A stretch of 64,000 bases of DNA from a virus. Below, piece after piece: positions 2,757-61,458 of the stretch. Position numbers and translations under genes: made by a program. The notes beneath the pieces were generated by a model, which was not told where the DNA came from, searched no databases, and worked only from the letters and a program-made list of their open reading frames with translations. Location: IMG/VR virus record IMGVR_UViG_3300047553_000365, positions 1-64,000 of that record; one strand, written 5' to 3'. Position 1 is the stretch's first letter, and the number at the start of each line of letters is the position of its first letter.

Positions 2757-2828
2757 GCAATGTTCGTCTAACGGCTAAGACAGGAAACTCTAAATCTCTC
2801 AATGCGGGTTCGATTCCCACACATTGCA
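2757..2828 (+). tRNA. tRNA with CTA anticodon (amber suppressor type)
   Basis: GCAATGT/ACATTGC, D stem GTCT/AGAC, loop CTCTAAA, T loop TTCGATT; one mismatch in each of the anticodon and T stems. Confidence 0.8.
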
Positions 2829-2830
2829 CC

Positions 2831-15866: not shown

Positions 15867-15942
15867 GGGCATGTATCCCAACGGTAGAGGAGATGCGCTT
15901 AGAACGCATATAGTGTCAGTTCGAATCTGACCATGCCCACCA
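15867..15942 (+). tRNA. trnL: tRNA-Leu(TAG), short variable loop
   Basis: GGGCATG/CATGCCC, ATGCG-CTTAGAA-CGCAT, encoded CCA. Confidence 0.9.
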
Positions 15943-45956: not shown

Positions 45957-46495
45957 TCGAGAAGTAGAATTTTTCCCCCATATACACAGAGGTTATCATA
46001 GTGACTATCCACATATCTTTCATCAATAGCTCTAGGACATTTATAGATACTTTCATTATCTTCCCCAATAACCTTAACCTTTGGTTGAATGGTTAGAAAG
46101 TATTGATATTGCTTCCAACAATCAGTATCATAATGATAGACCATTGTGGGAATTCTATGAGACTTACTAGGAATAGATGAAACATTATAAGCCAACTTAA
46201 TAACTTGTCTATGTCCAATAAATGTCACCCCTGTAGAATGACAAGGATAAAATCCAAGTCTCTTAAACTTATTCTCATACTTCAAAAGCTTGTTATAAAG
46301 ATCACTCTCATAGATTTGAGGAGTATGTTTTTTAGGATTAGGAATAGGAGGATTAAGAATCTGCTTAATAAGCGGAGCCAACATTTTATCCATGAGTTCC
46401 ATTGCATCGACAATTTGTTTGTCCAGCTTCTTAATTTCTCCAAATCCTGCAACTTGTTTGAAATGTTTCATTTGATTGTAATCATTTGTGGCCAA
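45950..46495 (-). CDS. minimal protein-kinase-like fold protein
   Basis: VIKLAY, IQPKV, DSHYDNL, ILLLDW. Confidence 0.5.
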   Translation of the reverse strand: MATNDYNQMKHFKQVAGFGEIKKLDKQIVDAMELMDKMLAPLIKQILNPPIPNPKKHTPQIYESDLYNKLLKYENKFKRLGFYPCHSTGVTFIGHRQVIKLAYNVSSIPSKSHRIPTMVYHYDTDCWKQYQYFLTIQPKVKVIGEDNESIYKCPRAIDERYVDSHYDNLCVYGGKILLLDW

Positions 46496-46905
46496 TCAGG
46501 TTTAATAGTTCCATTCTTACTATTAGCCAAGGTTATATGAAGTCCACGATATCTATCACCATCTTTAATTCCTAGAGCGGCTTTAATTCCTTCAATTTCT
46601 CTAGAATAGACTTTAAGATAATACATGATGAACCCTTTTTTGTATCCACCTTCGATGATATATGGGTCATACTCAAAGTCCACAGATTGTTTATGATATC
46701 CCTTTGCAGCTTGCCAGTCGATTTCATGTTTATTAACTACATTGTTATAGATTGTAATATGCGCTCCATGCATAGGAGTATTCATTTTAATCCAATACCT
46801 TTTGGAAATAAACCAGTAGTAATAGTTTACAAAATCCCTAGAGATATCCACCACAATCCTATTATGGTCTTTCTCTACTGAAATTTTACCACTAGCTTTC
46901 AACAT
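46468..46905 (-). CDS. 2H phosphoesterase-like protein
   Basis: GAHITIY and GLHITLA (two HxT motifs); ATG 5 nt after promoter motif. Confidence 0.6.
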   Translation of the reverse strand: MLKASGKISVEKDHNRIVVDISRDFVNYYYWFISKRYWIKMNTPMHGAHITIYNNVVNKHEIDWQAAKGYHKQSVDFEYDPYIIEGGYKKGFIMYYLKVYSREIEGIKAALGIKDGDRYRGLHITLANSKNGTIKPDWPQMITIK

Positions 46906-48931: not shown

Positions 48932-49489
48932 TTAAGAGAGTCTTTTAACAAACAACACAATATTATCCTGACTAGGAATTTCCACATCAATATAAGTTTC
49001 AAGCAAATCACCCAATGAAATAGAATAAATTCTCATTTGATCCTTAACATGAGTAATATTTCCATTAACATAACTATGCACAAGTTCTTCCAAGGTAGGA
49101 GGATTGTTATACAGCAAACGCTTATAATCTTCTGCATTAACTTTAGGACAATCCTTTCCTTCCCATTCCTCGGAAAACTTATCAATAGCTTCTTCCAAAA
49201 GAGAAAAGCAAGTATAATCTGCAACCGTCTCAAAAGGTTCATTACCAAGAACGATGAGAAGCCACAAAGTTTCCTTGGGATAATCAGGATGCTTAATAAA
49301 AAGCTCTGCTGAATCCACACCACTAATCAAATTAGTAGCTAGATTAATCTTCTCATCATTATTATTACCAACGATGAATTCATCTTCATCCCCTCCATCA
49401 TTAACTTTGTAAAGTTCAAAGTTATATTCCTTAACAAGAATATTCAGGAGAGACTTAACAACTGGAGTCCAATTATTGTAAGTTTTCAT
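48932..49489 (-). CDS. hypothetical protein
   Basis: ATG 6 nt after promoter motif. Confidence 0.75.
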   Translation of the reverse strand: MKTYNNWTPVVKSLLNILVKEYNFELYKVNDGGDEDEFIVGNNNDEKINLATNLISGVDSAELFIKHPDYPKETLWLLIVLGNEPFETVADYTCFSLLEEAIDKFSEEWEGKDCPKVNAEDYKRLLYNNPPTLEELVHSYVNGNITHVKDQMRIYSISLGDLLETYIDVEIPSQDNIVLFVKRLS

Positions 49490-49520
49490 GCCCAAAGTAT
49501 AGGTCGGTTTTAATTACTGT

Positions 49521-49937
49521 TTACTTGGATATTTTTAGAATCAGTTGATATTCCGTATACTCTTCATTGGGACCAAACTTATCATCCTCGATTGTTTCAA
49601 TTCTGTGAAGTTCAAGCTTACCCTTAGTCCAATCATTGACTGTAGTGTAGTCGGTATAATGTTTAGTCACATCCTTATTAATATAAAGAGTTAGTCCTTC
49701 ATGCGTAACTTCTGCAAACTTTGGAATAATAACTTCATCCCTAACAACATTCGTAACAGTATTAGGGGCGAATAAACAAAAGATAGTTGCCACAATAGCG
49801 TTTAGCATGAGTCCTAGGATAATACCGCACACAAAATTTGCAACAGTATCACCAACATCCTCATACATACATGAAAGTATACATAAGTAAAAGACAATCG
49901 CAGCCACTATAAGGTATGTAATTTCGTAACCAGTCAT
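49521..49937 (-). CDS. two-TM membrane protein
   Basis: Hydrophobic N-terminal half. Confidence 0.7.
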   Translation of the reverse strand: MTGYEITYLIVAAIVFYLCILSCMYEDVGDTVANFVCGIILGLMLNAIVATIFCLFAPNTVTNVVRDEVIIPKFAEVTHEGLTLYINKDVTKHYTDYTTVNDWTKGKLELHRIETIEDDKFGPNEEYTEYQLILKISK

Positions 49938-49954
49938 ATTATATTATTCTAATG

Positions 49955-50027
49955 TAGGGGCAGTAGGATTTGAACCTACGACCCAAGGATTATGAGTCCT
50001 CTGCTCTAACCACTGAGCTATACCCCT
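49955..50027 (-). tRNA. tRNA-Ile2/Met(CAT), Ile2-like body
   Basis: AGGGGTA/TGCCCCT, GAGGA-CTCATAA-TCCTT; D arm AGCTCAGTGGTTAGAGC as in ileX-type tRNAs. Confidence 0.88.
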
Positions 50028-50033
50028 ATGTTA

Positions 50034-50270
50034 TTAATTAGTGCAAACACGCTCACGCATAATTTGAAATACTGTTTGCTTAAGAAGATCACTACCAATA
50101 CTCAATCCTAAAAAATTAACACTCTCTAGTTCATGCACACGGTCAAGAAAGGTATCCAATTGATGCCTTTCATCTTCCTTAAGACCTTTAGTATCAAATA
50201 CTCCAATAGGTGTAGTTGCTCTAATAAAATACCTGTTTTCCCATCCGTCTACTCTCCATTTCATAGTCAT
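50034..50270 (-). CDS. hypothetical protein
   Basis: ORF track. Confidence 0.6.
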   Translation of the reverse strand: MTMKWRVDGWENRYFIRATTPIGVFDTKGLKEDERHQLDTFLDRVHELESVNFLGLSIGSDLLKQTVFQIMRERVCTN

Positions 50271-50271
50271 A

Positions 50272-50499
50272 TTATTTGTTTGGTTTATGTTTCTTTAACA
50301 GCTTTAAACAAAGTTTTCCTAATTCATCATCTCCAAAGTGTTGTTTAATTATATGCGACACTAAAGCTTTTTCACTTTTCAATCCATTACAAACCCAAAG
50401 TTCTCCCTTCTTAGAATATCCCCAAGTTCCTCCCCAAACATTAGGATCACACTTATGGAATTCGTATCCTGCAAGTTTTACTATTTCTTCGTATGTCAT
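50272..50499 (-). CDS. hypothetical protein
   Basis: ORF track. Confidence 0.6.
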   Translation of the reverse strand: MTYEEIVKLAGYEFHKCDPNVWGGTWGYSKKGELWVCNGLKSEKALVSHIIKQHFGDDELGKLCLKLLKKHKPNK

Positions 50500-50502
50500 A
50501 GA

Positions 50503-50835
50503 TTACATTTTCTGTAAAACTTCCCGAACCCTTTCCGCAGCTTCCAACTTAAAATTAACCCCATCTTCAAAATCAATAAACCAATCCAACAAAAACAATT
50601 CAACTGCTTGAAACATGGCCAAAGAATCAAGATCAGTAGAGAAACAACAAAAGCCACCATTACCATATTGCGCTCCAATTTCTGCCAATTTATGTTCGCA
50701 GTCTCCTCTACGAATAATGTAAACATTAGAAGGATCAACATCCCACAAAATCCCCAACAATTTCTTTAGGGCATCTTCTGGTTGATAATTTTTATATTGT
50801 TCAACAAAATTATTCATATTAGTTGTAGTTTTCAT
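50503..50835 (-). CDS. hypothetical protein
   Basis: ATG 6 nt after promoter motif. Confidence 0.7.
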   Translation of the reverse strand: MKTTTNMNNFVEQYKNYQPEDALKKLLGILWDVDPSNVYIIRRGDCEHKLAEIGAQYGNGGFCCFSTDLDSLAMFQAVELFLLDWFIDFEDGVNFKLEAAERVREVLQKM

Positions 50836-50868
50836 AGTCTTATTGTATCCCGGTTTTAATTACTTAAG

Positions 50869-50943
50869 TGGTGTTACATATTGGAATCGAACCAATCACC
50901 CGTCAGTTATAAACCAACCGCTCTACCAATGAGCTAATGTAAC
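50869..50943 (-). tRNA. tRNA-Ile(TAT)
   Basis: GTTACAT/ATGTAAC, GTTGG-TTTATAA-CTGAC, T arm ATTGG/CCAAT, encoded CCA. Confidence 0.9.
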
Positions 50944-50957
50944 ATTTATTATTACAG

Positions 50958-51084
50958 TGGCATGGGTGGGAATCGAACCCACACGCCCTAAACGGGCAAC
51001 GGATTTTGACGATTAATATAATATTGTTTCAACTATATTAATCGGTTTAAAAAGTCCGTAGCGTCTACCAATTCCGCCACCATG
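50958..51084 (-). tRNA. tRNA-Leu (CAA or TAA) with 42-nt hairpin insertion in the anticodon loop
   Basis: GGCATGG/CCATGCC, Leu D arm GGCGGAATTGGTAGACGC, ACGGA/TCCGT stem, long variable arm; insert holds CGATTAATATA/TATATTAATCG. Confidence 0.85.
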
Positions 51085-51097
51085 CCATTAACTCTAT

Positions 51098-51253
51098 TTA
51101 GTCTGCCTCATCTACAATGAAGACAGAAGCATAAGATTGAGTCTTAGGGTCTTCATAGCTTACACCATAGGCAGGATTGCAATCCTTAAGGGCAGCACAG
51201 TTACTAAGAGTAATTGCACCAATCATAATTCCAATATATTTCAACGTTTTCAT
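51098..51253 (-). CDS. small lipoprotein (51 aa, not in track)
   Basis: MKTLKYIGIMIGAITLSNC lipobox-like. Confidence 0.55.
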   Translation of the reverse strand: MKTLKYIGIMIGAITLSNCAALKDCNPAYGVSYEDPKTQSYASVFIVDEAD

Positions 51254-51449
51254 ATTTATTTTATTTTAGCAGTTATACCATTTATTACAACATTTACATT
51301 TAAAAGTTCCTCCAAATACAGGGTGTGCAGACTCCATAATATGTTTACCAGTTTTAGTAACTTCACACACTGTATTGATTTGTCGGCTAGAAGTAGGATT
51401 GAACATACTTAGAATAATTTCACCAATGAGTTTCAATATTTTCATAGGT

Positions 51450-51695
51450 TTATTTCTTGTAGCCTTTCAGTAGTTCTCCAATATGTTCAAGAACCAATTT
51501 AGCTTCTTCGATAGTAAGACAAACCATTCCACCATTATAGTTCATCTTTTGAGACTTGTCAATCTCAAAATTTGCAATAGTAATTCCATCACCCCCAACA
51601 TCTTTACGAAAATTCTCAATAGAAATACCATAAGTCTGTCCCATGAAGATTTTAATTTCCTTATATACTTCTGGTTCCATAATTTTATTCTTCAA
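51450..51695 (-). CDS. hypothetical protein
   Basis: ORF track. Confidence 0.65.
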   Translation of the reverse strand: MKNKIMEPEVYKEIKIFMGQTYGISIENFRKDVGGDGITIANFEIDKSQKMNYNGGMVCLTIEEAKLVLEHIGELLKGYKK

Positions 51696-51879
51696 ATTGT
51701 CTTACATATTCGTCTGCCATCATAGATATAATGGTTACTTGCCATGTTAGGGGAAACCACTTATCCCTAATCAACTCCCAAAAATCCTTTGGCCACCTAC
51801 CATATTCACACAGATATTTCCATGCTTTAATATGTTCAGGATTCTTAATATCAAAATAGTCTACGATTGATTCTTGCAT
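51685..51879 (-). CDS. hypothetical protein
   Basis: ORF track. Confidence 0.65.
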   Translation of the reverse strand: MQESIVDYFDIKNPEHIKAWKYLCEYGRWPKDFWELIRDKWFPLTWQVTIISMMADEYVRQFEE

Positions 51880-51880
51880 A

Positions 51881-52069
51881 TTACAGTTTGTTTAATTCTT
51901 TTCTTATTTTAGTGTTACAAGGAAAACAATGTTCACATGGAAAAAAACCCTTTGGAATAGTTTCCGTTACTGTTCCTTCCACCTTTAAACATTTACTATG
52001 TTCAGCATGATATACCCTAACACCCCAACGAGGAGTTGCAATTGCTTTTGGGTTATATTTTAATTTCAT
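51881..52069 (-). CDS. hypothetical protein
   Basis: ORF track. Confidence 0.55.
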   Translation of the reverse strand: MKLKYNPKAIATPRWGVRVYHAEHSKCLKVEGTVTETIPKGFFPCEHCFPCNTKIRKELNKL

Positions 52070-52260
52070 AGTTTGTTAATTTCTTCAAACGCTTTCTCCC
52101 AATTGTTTGTATCCATTAGAACGGAGATAGCGAGTTGGTCATACTTACCCAAGGTCTTGAATTTGTCAACAAATTCCTTTGCCTTTTGTTCTGCAAGTTC
52201 CGCAGATTCATTTACAGTAAGTGTAAATAGATTAAGATTGTTAATAAGTTTCGGTGACAT
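52066..52260 (-). CDS. hypothetical protein
   Basis: ATG 6 nt after promoter motif. Confidence 0.65.
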   Translation of the reverse strand: MSPKLINNLNLFTLTVNESAELAEQKAKEFVDKFKTLGKYDQLAISVLMDTNNWEKAFEEINKL

Positions 52261-52284
52261 GGTTATAGTATACCGTGGTTTTAA

Positions 52285-52641
52285 TTACTTGGTAAATGCT
52301 CTGATAGAATACAGAGAGATACTAAATAGGATTGCAGTTCTAATAACATAGAGTTCAACATATTGTAGAGAACATCCGATACAATCCAAAATACCATTAA
52401 CATAAGGTTCCTTCATAAACCATGCGATTAAAAGAATGGAAGGTAGACCAATAATTGCAGGAGTAGATTCTGGCTTCTCATCAAACTTAAGTAGTTTAGA
52501 GAATGTCCAAACACCAAATAGAAAGACACTCAAGCCTGTAAGATAACCCCATAATGCATAGTCAAACAAAAATCCACCACCTAACATAATTGGTAGACCT
52601 GTCCACCAAGGAAGGTTAAAAAGATAACTAAGTATTTTCAT
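52285..52641 (-). CDS. multi-TM membrane protein
   Basis: Four hydrophobic segments. Confidence 0.7.
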   Translation of the reverse strand: MKILSYLFNLPWWTGLPIMLGGGFLFDYALWGYLTGLSVFLFGVWTFSKLLKFDEKPESTPAIIGLPSILLIAWFMKEPYVNGILDCIGCSLQYVELYVIRTAILFSISLYSIRAFTK

Positions 52642-52643
52642 AA

Positions 52644-52859
52644 TTAATAAGTGTCTTTCTGAGTCCTTCTATTACAGATATCATCTTCCCATTCATTATG
52701 TTTAGGAACATGATTCTCAACTGCTTCTTCCCTTGTGTTGGCAAATTGCCATACCCAACAAGCAACATCTAGCTTCTCAAAAGCATCTTTCCAAGATTCA
52801 TTCTCTTCAAAAGCAACAATATTGCCATCATTTTCTTCGATTGTAATGTATCTGTTCAT
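52644..52859 (-). CDS. hypothetical protein
   Basis: ORF track. Confidence 0.65.
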   Translation of the reverse strand: MNRYITIEENDGNIVAFEENESWKDAFEKLDVACWVWQFANTREEAVENHVPKHNEWEDDICNRRTQKDTY

Positions 52860-52861
52860 AA

Positions 52862-53170
52862 TTAATAAAGATTTTCAGAATATAATATTCCCGTTTGCCC
52901 ATCATAACAGAGTTTTCTAATTTGTCCATTTTTTTCTGCAACTGCCCAAGCCTCTTCTCTTGATAAGAATTCACCAAACTGATTAATAAATCCTTGTTTC
53001 TCTACTTGATATTTAAAATTATCCCCATAGATTCTTCTACCTGTTTCTCTCATATCTGGTGAAAAATGTCTAACTCCCGAAAGAATTAACCCATCTTTCA
53101 TCATCATAGCTGCACATACTATGATAGAGTCAGGCTTTACTAAACCTTTTTCTGTCCAATAGTCTTCCAT
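52862..53170 (-). CDS. conserved phage hypothetical protein
   Basis: IVCAA...GVRH...QGFINQFGEFLSREEA...LYSENLY. Confidence 0.75.
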   Translation of the reverse strand: MEDYWTEKGLVKPDSIIVCAAMMMKDGLILSGVRHFSPDMRETGRRIYGDNFKYQVEKQGFINQFGEFLSREEAWAVAEKNGQIRKLCYDGQTGILYSENLY

Positions 53171-53180
53171 AATTTTAAGG

Positions 53181-53214
53181 GGTAGCAGTAACCCACTCCT
53201 AGATTACTGCTACC
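53181..53214. terminator. perfect 11-bp inverted repeat (terminator-like)
   Basis: GGTAGCAGTAA/TTACTGCTACC in an intergenic gap. Confidence 0.55.
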
Positions 53215-53243
53215 GTTTTACTCCCCACCACTTGTATTACAAG

Positions 53244-53738
53244 TTATTCAACATCTGTAGGAATTCCAAGAATGTTCTCTGCCTTAACATTGAAACATTC
53301 CTTAACTTCCTCAACTTCTCCCATAAGCTTCTTTGCATCACTACCAGTAAGATAGGAAGCAAACTGTTCCTTACTCACTTCTGATCCATCAACATAGTAA
53401 TGGGTCTTAGTCCTATTACCCACAGAAGGGTAAAGACGAATGTAATCCACTCCCTTATGTTCGATGATATAAGGGAATTGCTTCCATTGTCCCCAAGGAA
53501 GTGCGCCAACTTCTCCCCTAGTTCCTTCTTCAATTCCCTGCTTAACGCTGGAAAGGTTAGCATAATCAATACCAGCCCTTACAACACCTTCTGATACCTT
53601 TTCAAGAATAACATTCTTAAAAGAAGCAGCAGGTTTAGGTTGAGACTTCCAGCAAACCTTTACAAAGTTACCCTTTGCAGACAGAATCTTATTCTTAATT
53701 GCATCGGCACTCAATGACATATTAGTAGTATCGCTCAT
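53244..53738 (-). CDS. hypothetical protein
   Basis: ATG 6 nt after promoter motif. Confidence 0.8.
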   Translation of the reverse strand: MSDTTNMSLSADAIKNKILSAKGNFVKVCWKSQPKPAASFKNVILEKVSEGVVRAGIDYANLSSVKQGIEEGTRGEVGALPWGQWKQFPYIIEHKGVDYIRLYPSVGNRTKTHYYVDGSEVSKEQFASYLTGSDAKKLMGEVEEVKECFNVKAENILGIPTDVE

Positions 53739-53762
53739 ATCAGTATTATAGTTCGGTTTTAA

Positions 53763-54017
53763 TTAGTAGTTTCTATTAGCATTCACAAGACCATCAAACC
53801 ATGATTGGTCTTCCATAGACTTAGTAGCATTAGGACAAGTCCTAGAGATAAAAACATTAATATACTTACTGGTAGTTTTACTATGTTTGTAACCAGTAAT
53901 AACAACTCCCCTGCCGGGAATAAATGCAGCAACAGGAGTAGAGTAAGAATAAAAGATAACGCTTCCATCATTAAGATGAATGTCCGTTTGATTAGGAGAA
54001 ACATTAATAACTTTCAT
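53763..54017 (-). CDS. conserved phage hypothetical protein
   Basis: FYSYSTPVAA...HSKTTSKYIN. Confidence 0.75.
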   Translation of the reverse strand: MKVINVSPNQTDIHLNDGSVIFYSYSTPVAAFIPGRGVVITGYKHSKTTSKYINVFISRTCPNATKSMEDQSWFDGLVNANRNY

Positions 54018-54044
54018 GGCCCTATTGTATCCCGGTTTTAATTA

Positions 54045-54323
54045 CTATTCTTTTTCTATTGGAGTATGCACATTAACACAGTAAATCAAATTGTCATTTC
54101 CTCTACCACTATTTCTATATTCAAATGATCTACAAAACTCGTATCCTTTTTCTTTCCACATTTTACCAAGGAATTCATTTCTTTCATTCACATCATCAAA
54201 CTCATAGTAATTAGTAGTCACAGAGGTTTTTCTACCTTTGATAAATATCCAACTACTACCTGTATGTTGAAAGGTTAAGGACATATTAATATTCGTAGCC
54301 TTTATATTTTCTATAAGTATCAA
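54045..54323 (-). CDS. hypothetical protein
   Basis: ORF track. Confidence 0.55.
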   Translation of the reverse strand: MILIENIKATNINMSLTFQHTGSSWIFIKGRKTSVTTNYYEFDDVNERNEFLGKMWKEKGYEFCRSFEYRNSGRGNDNLIYCVNVHTPIEKE

Positions 54324-54483
54324 AACATTCGGGATCTTGTTTGGCTTTTCGCCTTTCTTCTCTGATCTTACTTTTCTTTAAATATTTACGATACTTTGAT
54401 TGTTTATGTTCTCCCCCTTTTTTGGGAGAATCAAAATATCTTTCAATTTGTTCTGACATAATAGTGTAATTAATGGCGATCAC
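54286..54483 (-). CDS. small basic hypothetical protein (true start likely downstream of tRNA-Arg)
   Basis: MSEQIERYFD...YRKYKGYEY. Confidence 0.55.
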   Translation of the reverse strand: MIAINYTIMSEQIERYFDSPKKGGEHKQSKYRKYLKKSKIREERRKAKQDPECFDTYRKYKGYEY

Positions 54484-54551
54484 GGCAAGATTCGAACTTG
54501 CAACCTAATCCTTAGAAGGGATTTGCTCTGGTCCTATTGAGCTACGCGACC
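54474..54551 (-). tRNA. trnR: tRNA-Arg(TCT)
   Basis: GGTCGCG/CGTGATC, AATCC-CTTCTAA-GGATT, encoded CCA. Confidence 0.95.
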
Positions 54552-54560
54552 ATGTTAATA

Positions 54561-55094
54561 TTATTTATCCTCAATATTGAATTTGTCACGAAGATCATTC
54601 ATAAGTTCAACTGCTTCAAGGGTAGTATCCTCTCCACTTTTAATATACTCCAAGGCTCTAGCAACAACATTCCTTAGATTACTAACAGCCTTTTTAACAT
54701 GAGTATACTCCTCATTCGTGTCACAGATATAAAGAGAGATTTTTTCCAATTCCTTAAGACTTTCGATTTTTCCATACCAGATTTTTTCTATTGTTTCAAT
54801 AACCCTTTCTTTAACCCTTTCATTCCATCCTGCAACTCTATTAACCCTAGTGCTTTTAAGGACACCCTTATTAGTTCTAGTATTAACAGCACAGATACGA
54901 ATAGCATCTGCTCCACACTTACGAGAAACCCCATTAGTAATGGAGGAATAAACCAACACCATAATATCAGGATTCTTCTTACTAGTGTAGGAATAGACAA
55001 TCTCATTTCCTGACTTATCCTTTGTCCAACCTTTAGCGTGTTGCAAAAGGCCATCAAATTCTAATTCAGTAATGGTAACATAGGTCTTGCTCAT
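54561..55094 (-). CDS. hypothetical protein
   Basis: ATG 6 nt after promoter motif. Confidence 0.75.
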   Translation of the reverse strand: MSKTYVTITELEFDGLLQHAKGWTKDKSGNEIVYSYTSKKNPDIMVLVYSSITNGVSRKCGADAIRICAVNTRTNKGVLKSTRVNRVAGWNERVKERVIETIEKIWYGKIESLKELEKISLYICDTNEEYTHVKKAVSNLRNVVARALEYIKSGEDTTLEAVELMNDLRDKFNIEDK

Positions 55095-60717: not shown

Positions 60718-61458
60718 CTAATATAACCATAAATCTTCCTCACTTGTAATAGCACCAAACAAGAAATCATTAATAGAAAGGTAATCAGTTAGGTTATAAT
60801 TATCACCTTTAGTTGGCGACCACCATGACCCATTTCTTTGTTGGTCAGAGCATTCATCCTCCCAACTGTGTCCAATCTTTTTAAGCATTTCTTTTTGATC
60901 TGCTCTACCTTGTCCATGTAATTCTTTAGGAGAAAAATGAGACAGGCAAAACATAGAGATACTATTTCTTTCCCAATCCTTAACTCTCCATAGAAAGACA
61001 TTGGCAACATCTTCTTTCGGACATTGAAATGCTCTAGCATCAAACACAGCAGGATTATATGATCCGATATTAAATCTACCATTATCCCAATTCAAACATG
61101 TCCAAGTTTTATTGAAGTAGGCAGTCATTAGTGCAGCAGTAACAGATTCAATCTTATTCTGTCTACCACCGAACCATTGTTGAGTTTCAATACTACCACT
61201 ATCATCCAACACAAAAGTTACTTCATCACTTTGAACATACAATCCTTTACAGTTTTGCATTTCCTTAGCAACATACTTAGCAGAAATAAACATAGCATTG
61301 ATTAACTTCGTATCAAAAGGTTTATCGCAACCTTTAGTCCAAGTATGAAATGCCTTACCATCTACTCTAACAAGGATAGGAACCTTGGGAGTAAAGTAAT
61401 GTTCACTGATAGATTCGTAGTGTTTGATTCTATCACCTAATGTATCTTTGCTATTCAT
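60718..61458 (-). CDS. thg1: tRNA-His guanylyltransferase Thg1-like 3'-5' polymerase
   Basis: VRVDGKAFH, KPFD, YVQSDEVT, FGGRQNKIES, VFDARAF, FLWRVKD..RNSI. Confidence 0.92.
   Translation of the reverse strand: MNSKDTLGDRIKHYESISEHYFTPKVPILVRVDGKAFHTWTKGCDKPFDTKLINAMFISAKYVAKEMQNCKGLYVQSDEVTFVLDDSGSIETQQWFGGRQNKIESVTAALMTAYFNKTWTCLNWDNGRFNIGSYNPAVFDARAFQCPKEDVANVFLWRVKDWERNSISMFCLSHFSPKELHGQGRADQKEMLKKIGHSWEDECSDQQRNGSWWSPTKGDNYNLTDYLSINDFLFGAITSEEDLWLY

Follow-up and report, generated by a model that had tools for sequence, protein, structure and literature searches.

The phage record and its tRNA genes

The DNA analysed here, which we refer to as the window, comprises the first 64 kb of an IMG/VR virus record of 138,655 bp that is ~67% complete and has a G+C content of 35.7%. 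The DNA runs in which the phage record occurs are freshwater and freshwater-sediment metagenomes, and no RNA run was listed for positions 49000-53000 of the window. When the record was searched with ARAGORN in intron mode, 26 tRNA genes were detected, and a single gene among them, coding for a tRNA-Leu(UAA), was found to be interrupted (Table 1). No other tRNA of the record can read UUA or UUG, and these two codons account for 40% of the Leu codons; hence, a tRNA-Leu(UAA) would be useful to the phage. The tRNA-Ile(UAU) gene that follows probably shares a transcript with the interrupted gene. Upstream of both, a consensus scan revealed a promoter-like site, which is a pattern match only, the regional total of such sites not being above that of shuffled sequences.

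Table 1. Coordinates of the interrupted tRNA-Leu(UAA) gene, of its neighbours and of further genes of the phage record (positions up to 64,000 lie in the window)
Feature	Coordinates	Strand	Evidence and remarks
tRNA-Ile(UAU)	50869..50943	-	ARAGORN; Rfam 59.3 bits; co-oriented, 14 nt downstream of tRNA-Leu
3′ exon of tRNA-Leu(UAA)	50958..51007	-	A35-A38, UCCGU, Leu-type long variable arm, T arm, acceptor 3′ strand, discriminator A
Intervening sequence, 44 nt	51008..51051	-	between U34 and A35; leader UUUAAAC (7 nt), 13-bp hairpin, trailer UC (2 nt)
Hairpin in the insert	51010..51044	-	13 bp: 11 Watson-Crick pairs in a row, then G-U and U-A; 9-nt loop UGAAACAAU
5′ exon of tRNA-Leu(UAA)	51052..51086	-	Rfam and ARAGORN; acceptor 5′ strand, Leu-type D arm, ACGGA, C32, U33, U34
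Promoter-like site	51534..51562	-	consensus scan; TTGACA-17-TATAAT, 12/12, sigma-70-type; ~450 nt upstream of tRNA-Leu
Thg1	61018-61434	-	98.7 bits
PHROG-547 calcineurin-like metallophosphoesterase	74188-74850		directly downstream of Rnl1
Rnl1-type RNA ligase	75353-76435		65.8 and 64.4 bits; beyond the window
PTH2 peptidyl-tRNA hydrolase	76978-77424
Small AAA_33 P-loop kinase	81754-82158		27.8 bits (cut-off 27)
Second RNA ligase, with OB domain	87067-88425

Two other tRNA genes of the window deserve a remark. A gene with the anticodon CUA (2757-2830, plus strand) is of the amber suppressor type; it was labelled Pyl by ARAGORN and scored 50.3 bits with the Rfam tRNA model. TAG is the rarest stop codon among the long ORFs (9 of 106), and a crude ORF-coverage test did not single out TAG recoding. 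The gene labelled tRNA-Leu(UAG) (15867-15942, plus strand) is only 76 nt long, which is a class I length, and its identity is uncertain because it does not have the long variable arm expected of a bacterial tRNA-Leu.

The ORF at 46468-46905 (minus strand) had no Pfam match at E≤0.01, and the Pfam TROVE model had no match in the phage record. No IMG/VR relatives were retrieved with the two proteins neighbouring the tRNA locus as queries, the 51-amino acid ORF upstream of the tRNA-Leu gene had no homologue on record besides itself, and cultured phages yielded short tRNA-arm matches to the locus and nothing longer.

Anatomy of the interrupted tRNA-Leu gene

The Rfam tRNA model spans positions 50958-51086 of the minus strand at 47 bits (gathering score 29; E 5.7e-08; model positions 1-71), with ~47 extra nt in the anticodon loop and a long variable arm, which makes the gene a member of the class II tRNA-Leu. 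It outscores two uninterrupted tRNAs of the same phage (45.5 and 40.3 bits). ARAGORN missed the gene in its default mode; in intron mode it drew the full cloverleaf of a class II Leu tRNA, with an intron of 44 nt and 7 of 7 acceptor pairs. CCA is not encoded. An earlier inspection of these letters, the sequence-only reading, had described an otherwise intact class II tRNA-Leu split in the anticodon loop by a hairpin, and both programs bear this out. The end of the gene had been placed at 51084, whereas the Rfam match runs to 51086.

The two halves of the anticodon stem, ACGGA and UCCGU, stand 51 nt apart, and the insert is therefore 44 nt long (51008-51051) rather than 42 nt as first reported. 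Its position was fixed with three independent comparators. One is the contig of a related phage with an empty site, described below; the others are L118 and L119, two phage tRNA-Leu(UAA) genes without an insert, in which the D arm and the anticodon arm are identical to those of the locus and the loop is CUUAAAA. The T arm of L118 is identical as well. Since one 44-nt register alone restores the CUUAAAA loop of these relatives, the boundaries of the insert can be set between U34 and A35. After in silico excision of the insert, ARAGORN recognized a plain tRNA-Leu(taa) with this canonical loop. The predicted spliced junction reads ...ACGGACUU joined to AAAAUCCGUUGCCCG..., with the gene's own variable arm. 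The sequence-only reading had left the choice between a CAA and a UAA anticodon. Both are arithmetically possible with the removal of 44 nt, but the loop of the uninterrupted relatives fixes the product as UAA, not CAA. The removals of 42 nt that had been proposed for these products have coordinates that are off by 2 nt, and they leave 9-nt loops that ARAGORN calls SeC/Stop.

Within the 5′ exon, 27 nt are identical to L118 and L119 and to plastid-type trnL(UAA) 5′ exons. This stretch (51052-51078) is shared with the plastid/cyanobacterial-type loci L127-L145; the identity is a possible hint of a cyanobacterial host, or might simply reflect the strong conservation of this tRNA.

The insert is an AU-rich plain stem with no conserved module. 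The 11 perfect base pairs originally described are present, but the proposed extension to 15 bp is not: the stem has 13 bp, one of them G-U. The predicted free energy of the hairpin is -11.3 kcal/mol, against -2.5±1.6 kcal/mol for shuffled sequences (ViennaRNA; z = -5.37), and none of 200 shuffles was as stable. When the whole RNA was folded, U33, U34 and the first two U's of the intron paired with A38-A35 and thereby added four A-U pairs to the anticodon stem. We conclude that the intervening sequence in the tRNA-Leu gene is a real and precisely defined feature, of 44 nt, at U34/A35.

Filled and empty alleles

A contig of 331 nt from another study matches positions 50957-51287 without a difference. 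Its identity across the interrupted region shows that the insert is not an assembly artefact, and samples from two or three studies at least contain the interrupted allele. By contrast, the insert site is empty in a contig of a related phage (run X9) that is ~97% similar, with 7 differences in 229 nt upstream. On the plus strand of this contig, ...AACGGATTTT runs straight into AAGTCCGT, which corresponds to ACGGA-CUUAAAA-UCCGU on the tRNA strand.

The 44-nt insert is single-copy in the 138.7-kb record. A search for the same insert in other phages, which the sequence-only reading had proposed, was only partly rewarded: the identical insert was recovered in the contig of the other study, but it is absent from other viral contigs, where the hairpin arms had no matches. 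In 596 Gb of bacterial genomes, the hairpin gave seven scattered single matches in unrelated organisms, which is about the level expected by chance. An exact-pattern search for filled alleles returned none from viral contigs or metagenome contigs, and no diverged copies of the insert were found. A dispersed palindrome of the REP/MITE type was considered and rejected, since the insert is unique in the record, missing from viral contigs and at chance level in bacteria. Given that all filled copies are identical and that a close relative lacks the insert, the insertion could be so recent that selection has had no time to act on it.

Comparison with known types of intron

With Rfam at E≤10, no intron or ribozyme family was found at the locus in the region 49500-55000, and there was no match to RF00028, with which a group I catalytic core (P3-P9) would be recognized. 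Group I introns of tRNA-Leu(UAA) classically lie between U34 and A35. When metagenomes were scanned for the 5′ exon followed by anything but A35, 19 loci with inserts of 423-488 nt were obtained (one gave no insert), and the four of these loci that were given to Rfam (L129, L134, L138 and L141) matched RF00028 at 84-119 bits, which served as the positive control. The cyanobacterial/plastid group I introns occupy the same site of the same tRNA, with a U at -1 and the 27-nt identical 5′ exon. However, they are 423-488 nt long, whereas the phage insert has 44 nt, no catalytic core and no terminal G. Its end signals are mixed: U34 before the 5′ junction fits a group I intron, but the insert ends in ...CGUC, and the introns compared end in G. 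Local alignment of the insert with 12 tRNA-Leu group I introns gave scores of 14-20, while shuffles had means of 16-18 and maxima of 23-30. The size of 44 nt, the lack of an Rfam core, the terminal C and the absence of any alignment above shuffles led us to reject a group I intron or its remnant as a candidate. The judgement of the sequence-only reading that a group I ribozyme would need a far longer insert stands: group I introns measure roughly 200 nt or more, and a 44-nt insert cannot self-splice by their chemistry.

Longer inserts at U34/A35 of tRNA-Leu(UAA) were observed in three other viral contigs, L171 (~9094+), L174 and L178. These inserts of 486-613 nt end in G and contain no ORF longer than 50 amino acids. 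At the gathering threshold, Rfam called no intron in any of the three, and for L178 a relaxed cut-off of E≤0.1 gave no call either. Divergent group I introns are one possibility for these long inserts, but they may also be of another kind.

The protein-spliced tRNA introns of archaea and eukaryotes are likewise short, non-catalytic and located in the anticodon loop, and they need an endonuclease and a ligase, which is the logic that we propose here. In those systems, the intron lies at 37/38 in a bulge-helix-bulge (BHB), which is cut by EndA/TSEN, and the exons are then joined by RtcB or Trl1, whereas the phage insert lies at 34/35 and has no BHB. Explicit enumeration of BHB motifs (strict and with one mismatch, with the extended arm taken into account, using a script run without a positive-control RNA) found none at the junctions of the locus or of eight other inserts, in agreement with the earlier statement that no clear BHB is visible. 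The EndA family (PF01974) was detected neither in the phage record, which is ~67% complete, nor in 13 further phage records that have an interrupted tRNA-Leu, four of these being at least 98% complete. RtcB was not found in the phage record either, and the ligase that is present is of the ATP-dependent Rnl1 type.

The intervening sequences of bacterial 23S rRNA provide another parallel, as they are also optional hairpins in a loop of a functional stable RNA and are removed by a protein nuclease, RNase III. The 23S rRNA fragments stay unjoined, whereas a tRNA anticodon loop must be rejoined. Furthermore, as reasoned from the fold, neither of the phage junctions is within the hairpin stem, and cuts in the U/A extension helix would be staggered in the sense opposite to that of RNase III products; for these two reasons, excision by RNase III was discarded on inspection. 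The RNase P minihelix model was also discarded on inspection, since the stem starts 7 nt past the 5′ junction and the cut would be misplaced. GUC, the classic hammerhead triplet, immediately precedes the 3′ junction; a self-cleaving hammerhead was nevertheless rejected on inspection, because neither a CUGAUGA box nor a three-way junction is present, the stem is plain and Rfam found nothing. The leader UUUAAAC is the classic -1 frameshift heptamer when a hairpin follows, as is the case here. No ORF crosses the tRNA, and we regard the resemblance to a frameshift signal as a coincidence.

Interrupted tRNA-Leu(UAA) genes in other phages

IMG/VR was scanned with a pattern composed of a Leu D arm, GGACU, a gap of 21-51 nt and AAAUCC. 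Of the anticodon loop, this pattern fixed only C32, U33 and A36-A38, and the conservation of U34 and A35, which it did not force, is therefore informative. Ordinary tRNA-Leu genes also matched. Interrupted tRNA-Leu(UAA) genes were found in 13 contigs, with eight further distinct inserts of 21-49 nt. Exact removal yields CUUAAAA for all nine inserts, that of the locus included, and the U34/A35 register is allowed in eight of the nine.

The inserts differ in layout. A leader-hairpin-trailer arrangement in an intron that starts with UU is found at the locus (44 nt), in L153 (36 nt) and in L169/L189 (32 nt); L153 and L169 share with the locus the UU start, a short leader, a clean hairpin and a trailer of 2-3 nt. 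The hairpin is flush in L158/L175 (26 nt) and L176 (36 nt). In L148/L190 (49 nt), L183 (49 nt) and L159 (47 nt), the insert ends at CCA or close to it, and L149/L177 and L163 have 21-nt hairpins. Being so heterogeneous, the nine inserts may not share one mechanism.

Contigs L149 and L163 allow a test of constraint. Their flanks have diverged by ~30%, and yet the tRNA with its 21-nt insert differs at only 7 of 114 positions, of which 4 lie in the loop of the insert, 1 in the anticodon stem and 2 beyond the 3′ end. This pattern of substitutions indicates that, in this lineage, purifying selection acts on the interrupted tRNA gene as well as on the stem of the insert. A decaying pseudogene would not show such selection.

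Short introns of this kind have a precedent. Devoto et al. 2019 (PMC6784885) described tRNAs of Lak phages with optional, sequence-invariant 'enigmatic' introns, and offered no mechanism. In the literature that followed Devoto et al. 2019 (PMC6784885), we found no mechanistic work on phage tRNA mini-introns. Like the insert studied here, the Lak megaphage introns (PMC6784885) are short, lie in the anticodon loop, are optional, are invariant where present and belong to no RNA family. The Lak case presented in the text of that paper (PMC6784885) is a tRNA-like insert, whereas the locus has a plain hairpin, the comparison being one of descriptions and not of sequences. The phage is also a different one (138.7 kb or more, freshwater, with a standard-looking code), its host environment is another, and its insert is, by description, unrelated. 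At our locus we find a short anticodon-loop insert in a restorable tRNA that is optional, invariant and of no known family. Judging from these features, the locus is a putative intron and a sequence-unique addition to the barely described phage tRNA mini-introns.

A different type of tRNA-Leu-like gene was observed in more than 110 phage contigs (L004-L117; for example L028:2413-2511, L009:10-148 and L009:397-512). These genes have a near-invariant shell, with an AGUCAGG/CCUGACU acceptor, a Leu-type D arm and a canonical T arm, around centres of 70-100 nt that are wholly different between phages, and some loci have two copies. Only weak Rfam tRNA matches were obtained with the shells, and some of the centres contain covarying helices (GAUAAC/GUUAUC to GGUAAC/GUUACC). 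As at the locus, a Leu-type D arm, a T arm and an acceptor stem frame extra RNA at the place of the anticodon loop. However, neither the anticodon stem-loop nor the Leu variable arm survives in the shells, which excision cannot turn back into a tRNA, whereas the locus keeps both and is restored perfectly. No shell-type gene was found in this phage.

RNA-repair genes of the phage

Beyond the window, the record encodes enzymes of the kinds that heal and seal RNA ends (Table 1); with Thg1, which lies in the window, the genes for handling tRNA are densely represented. A metallophosphoesterase, Rnl1, a 128-amino acid protein and PTH2 follow each other in a row (74188-77424); the 128-amino acid protein had no family match. 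PHROG-547 homologues were found in two other phages with interrupted tRNAs, at most 2-3 kb from Rnl1, and these match Pfam Metallophos, whereas three control Rnl1 neighbourhoods had no such homologue. When a candidate endonuclease was sought near Rnl1 across the phages with interrupted tRNAs, the metallophosphoesterase alone recurred.

Genes of the ATP-dependent RNA ligase family were present in seven of the eight assessable interrupted lineages and in 6 of 16 uninterrupted control records (Fisher p = 0.027), and all four interrupted genomes that are at least 98% complete have one. For Rnl1 alone, the figures were 5 of 8 and 3 of 16 (p = 0.047). The association between ligase and interrupted tRNA is weak, as the lineages are few, genome size confounds the comparison and the controls may hold other interrupted tRNAs. 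Moreover, genes for healing and sealing are frequent in large phages, where they serve as a defence against host anticodon nucleases. Their presence is thus not specific, since they serve the repair of tRNAs cut by these nucleases. In phage T4, the break made by the PrrC anticodon nuclease is healed by Pnk and sealed by Rnl1. The present phage resembles T4 in having an Rnl1-family ligase together with end-healing candidates, namely the metallophosphoesterase and the small kinase, for work at an anticodon loop. T4, however, mends a single nick inflicted by a host defence and excises nothing, whereas removal of the phage insert would need two cuts 44 nt apart.

A protein-spliced mini-intron as the proposed explanation

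Protein-dependent excision and re-ligation is the explanation that we favour, because the two halves of the loop are exact, the design is recurrent, another lineage shows selection and the phage brings its own healing and sealing genes. We put at about even the chance that the insert is a protein-spliced mini-intron of the Lak-phage 'enigmatic' kind in a functional tRNA-Leu(UAA). In the scheme that we infer for transcription, excision, the acting enzymes and any benefit of the insert, the locus would be transcribed as a 129-nt pre-tRNA, probably together with the downstream tRNA-Ile. The tRNA body would fold normally, with the 13-bp hairpin projecting from the anticodon loop, and the first two U's of the intron could extend the anticodon stem by pairing with A35 and A36. 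One or two putative protein endonucleases, of phage or host origin, would then cut after U34 and before A35. The ends, if they need healing, would be processed by the phage metallophosphoesterase and the P-loop kinase, and the exons would be joined by the phage Rnl1-type ligase, whose family seals broken anticodon loops in T4. The product would be an 85-nt tRNA-Leu with the loop CUUAAAA, reading UUA and UUG. A possible benefit is that the anticodon loop would be hidden from a host anticodon nuclease, and another is that maturation of the tRNA would be tied to phage gene expression. More generally, phages or their bacterial hosts might have a protein-only tRNA splicing that relies on neither BHB nor EndA, in which a putative endonuclease excises mid-anticodon hairpins and Rnl1 with healing enzymes rejoins the halves; this broader proposal is tentative, and its chance falls slightly short of even.

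Several other explanations have to be weighed. It is rather unlikely, in our view, that a recent unspliced insertion, a selfish or accidental palindrome, inactivated a dispensable tRNA, so that the gene is a young pseudogene and a host tRNA-Leu does the decoding. Such an event would account for the optional nature of the insert, with an empty site in a ~97% similar relative, for filled copies that are all identical and have no evolutionary depth, for a singleton without homologues in the viral, metagenome and bacterial collections, and for the failure to find a ribozyme, a BHB or an endonuclease; phage tRNAs are, besides, generally dispensable. It would not account for a tRNA body and two loop halves that are flawless, nor for the same precise design in eight other phage lineages, one of which is under purifying selection that includes the stem of the insert. 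Selection against the allele is not strong, given its occurrence in two or three studies at least, and, unlike palindromes of the MITE/REP type, the insert is not repeated anywhere. A quite improbable reading is that the RNA acts unspliced, as a look-alike that is charged by LeuRS or binds a nuclease, as a hairpin decoy for a tRNA-targeting defence, or as a small-RNA carrier. The bacterial LeuRS does not read the anticodon, and hence the unspliced form could still be handled as a tRNA-Leu. The Leu-type acceptor/D-arm/T-arm shells around hypervariable centres in more than 110 viral contigs lend this reading some plausibility, as does the reported ability of phage tRNAs to evade anticodon nucleases via loop changes (PMC10264068). 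However, a decoy or scaffold needs neither the perfect anticodon stem nor the two loop halves that the locus has kept, exact excision gives CUUAAAA with all nine inserts, and this phage has a plain AU-rich hairpin without a conserved module and no gene of the shell type. Of the two fates that the sequence-only reading had suggested, protein-mediated splicing and an unspliced decoy, the comparative evidence favours splicing.

It is highly improbable that the insert is what a deletion has left of a group I intron at U34/A35, either dead or dependent on a ribozyme acting in trans, even though the site is exactly that of the cyanobacterial/plastid trnL(UAA) group I intron, the 5′ exon has 27 identical nt, a U precedes the 5′ junction as in group I introns, and other phage tRNA-Leu(UAA) genes have inserts of 486-613 nt at the same site. 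The alignments to 12 introns did not rise above shuffles, the insert ends in C and not in G, and Rfam detected no core. A perfect hairpin is, furthermore, unlike the product of random deletion, and the uninterrupted relatives make an insertion more parsimonious than the decay of an intron.

Implications for tRNA maturation in phages

Textbooks describe the tRNA introns of bacteria and phages as self-splicing group I introns and assign the protein-dependent splicing of tRNAs to archaea and eukaryotes. Neither type accommodates a 44-nt hairpin that splits the anticodon of a tRNA which is otherwise perfect and is needed. The locus adds one independent sequence family, with an empty-site relative, to the phage mini-introns, and it offers a compact test substrate, with a 129-nt precursor, an 85-nt product and a unique junction. 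If the insert is not spliced, the locus shows how phage tRNA genes get disabled at an old group I homing site. If it is spliced, bacteria or their viruses would have a route of RNA processing that is new to the literature, and the widespread phage 'tRNA repair' genes would have a second function. If the proposal of a mini-intron is true, the intron may make the maturation of the tRNA depend on phage enzymes, or hide its anticodon loop from anticodon nucleases.
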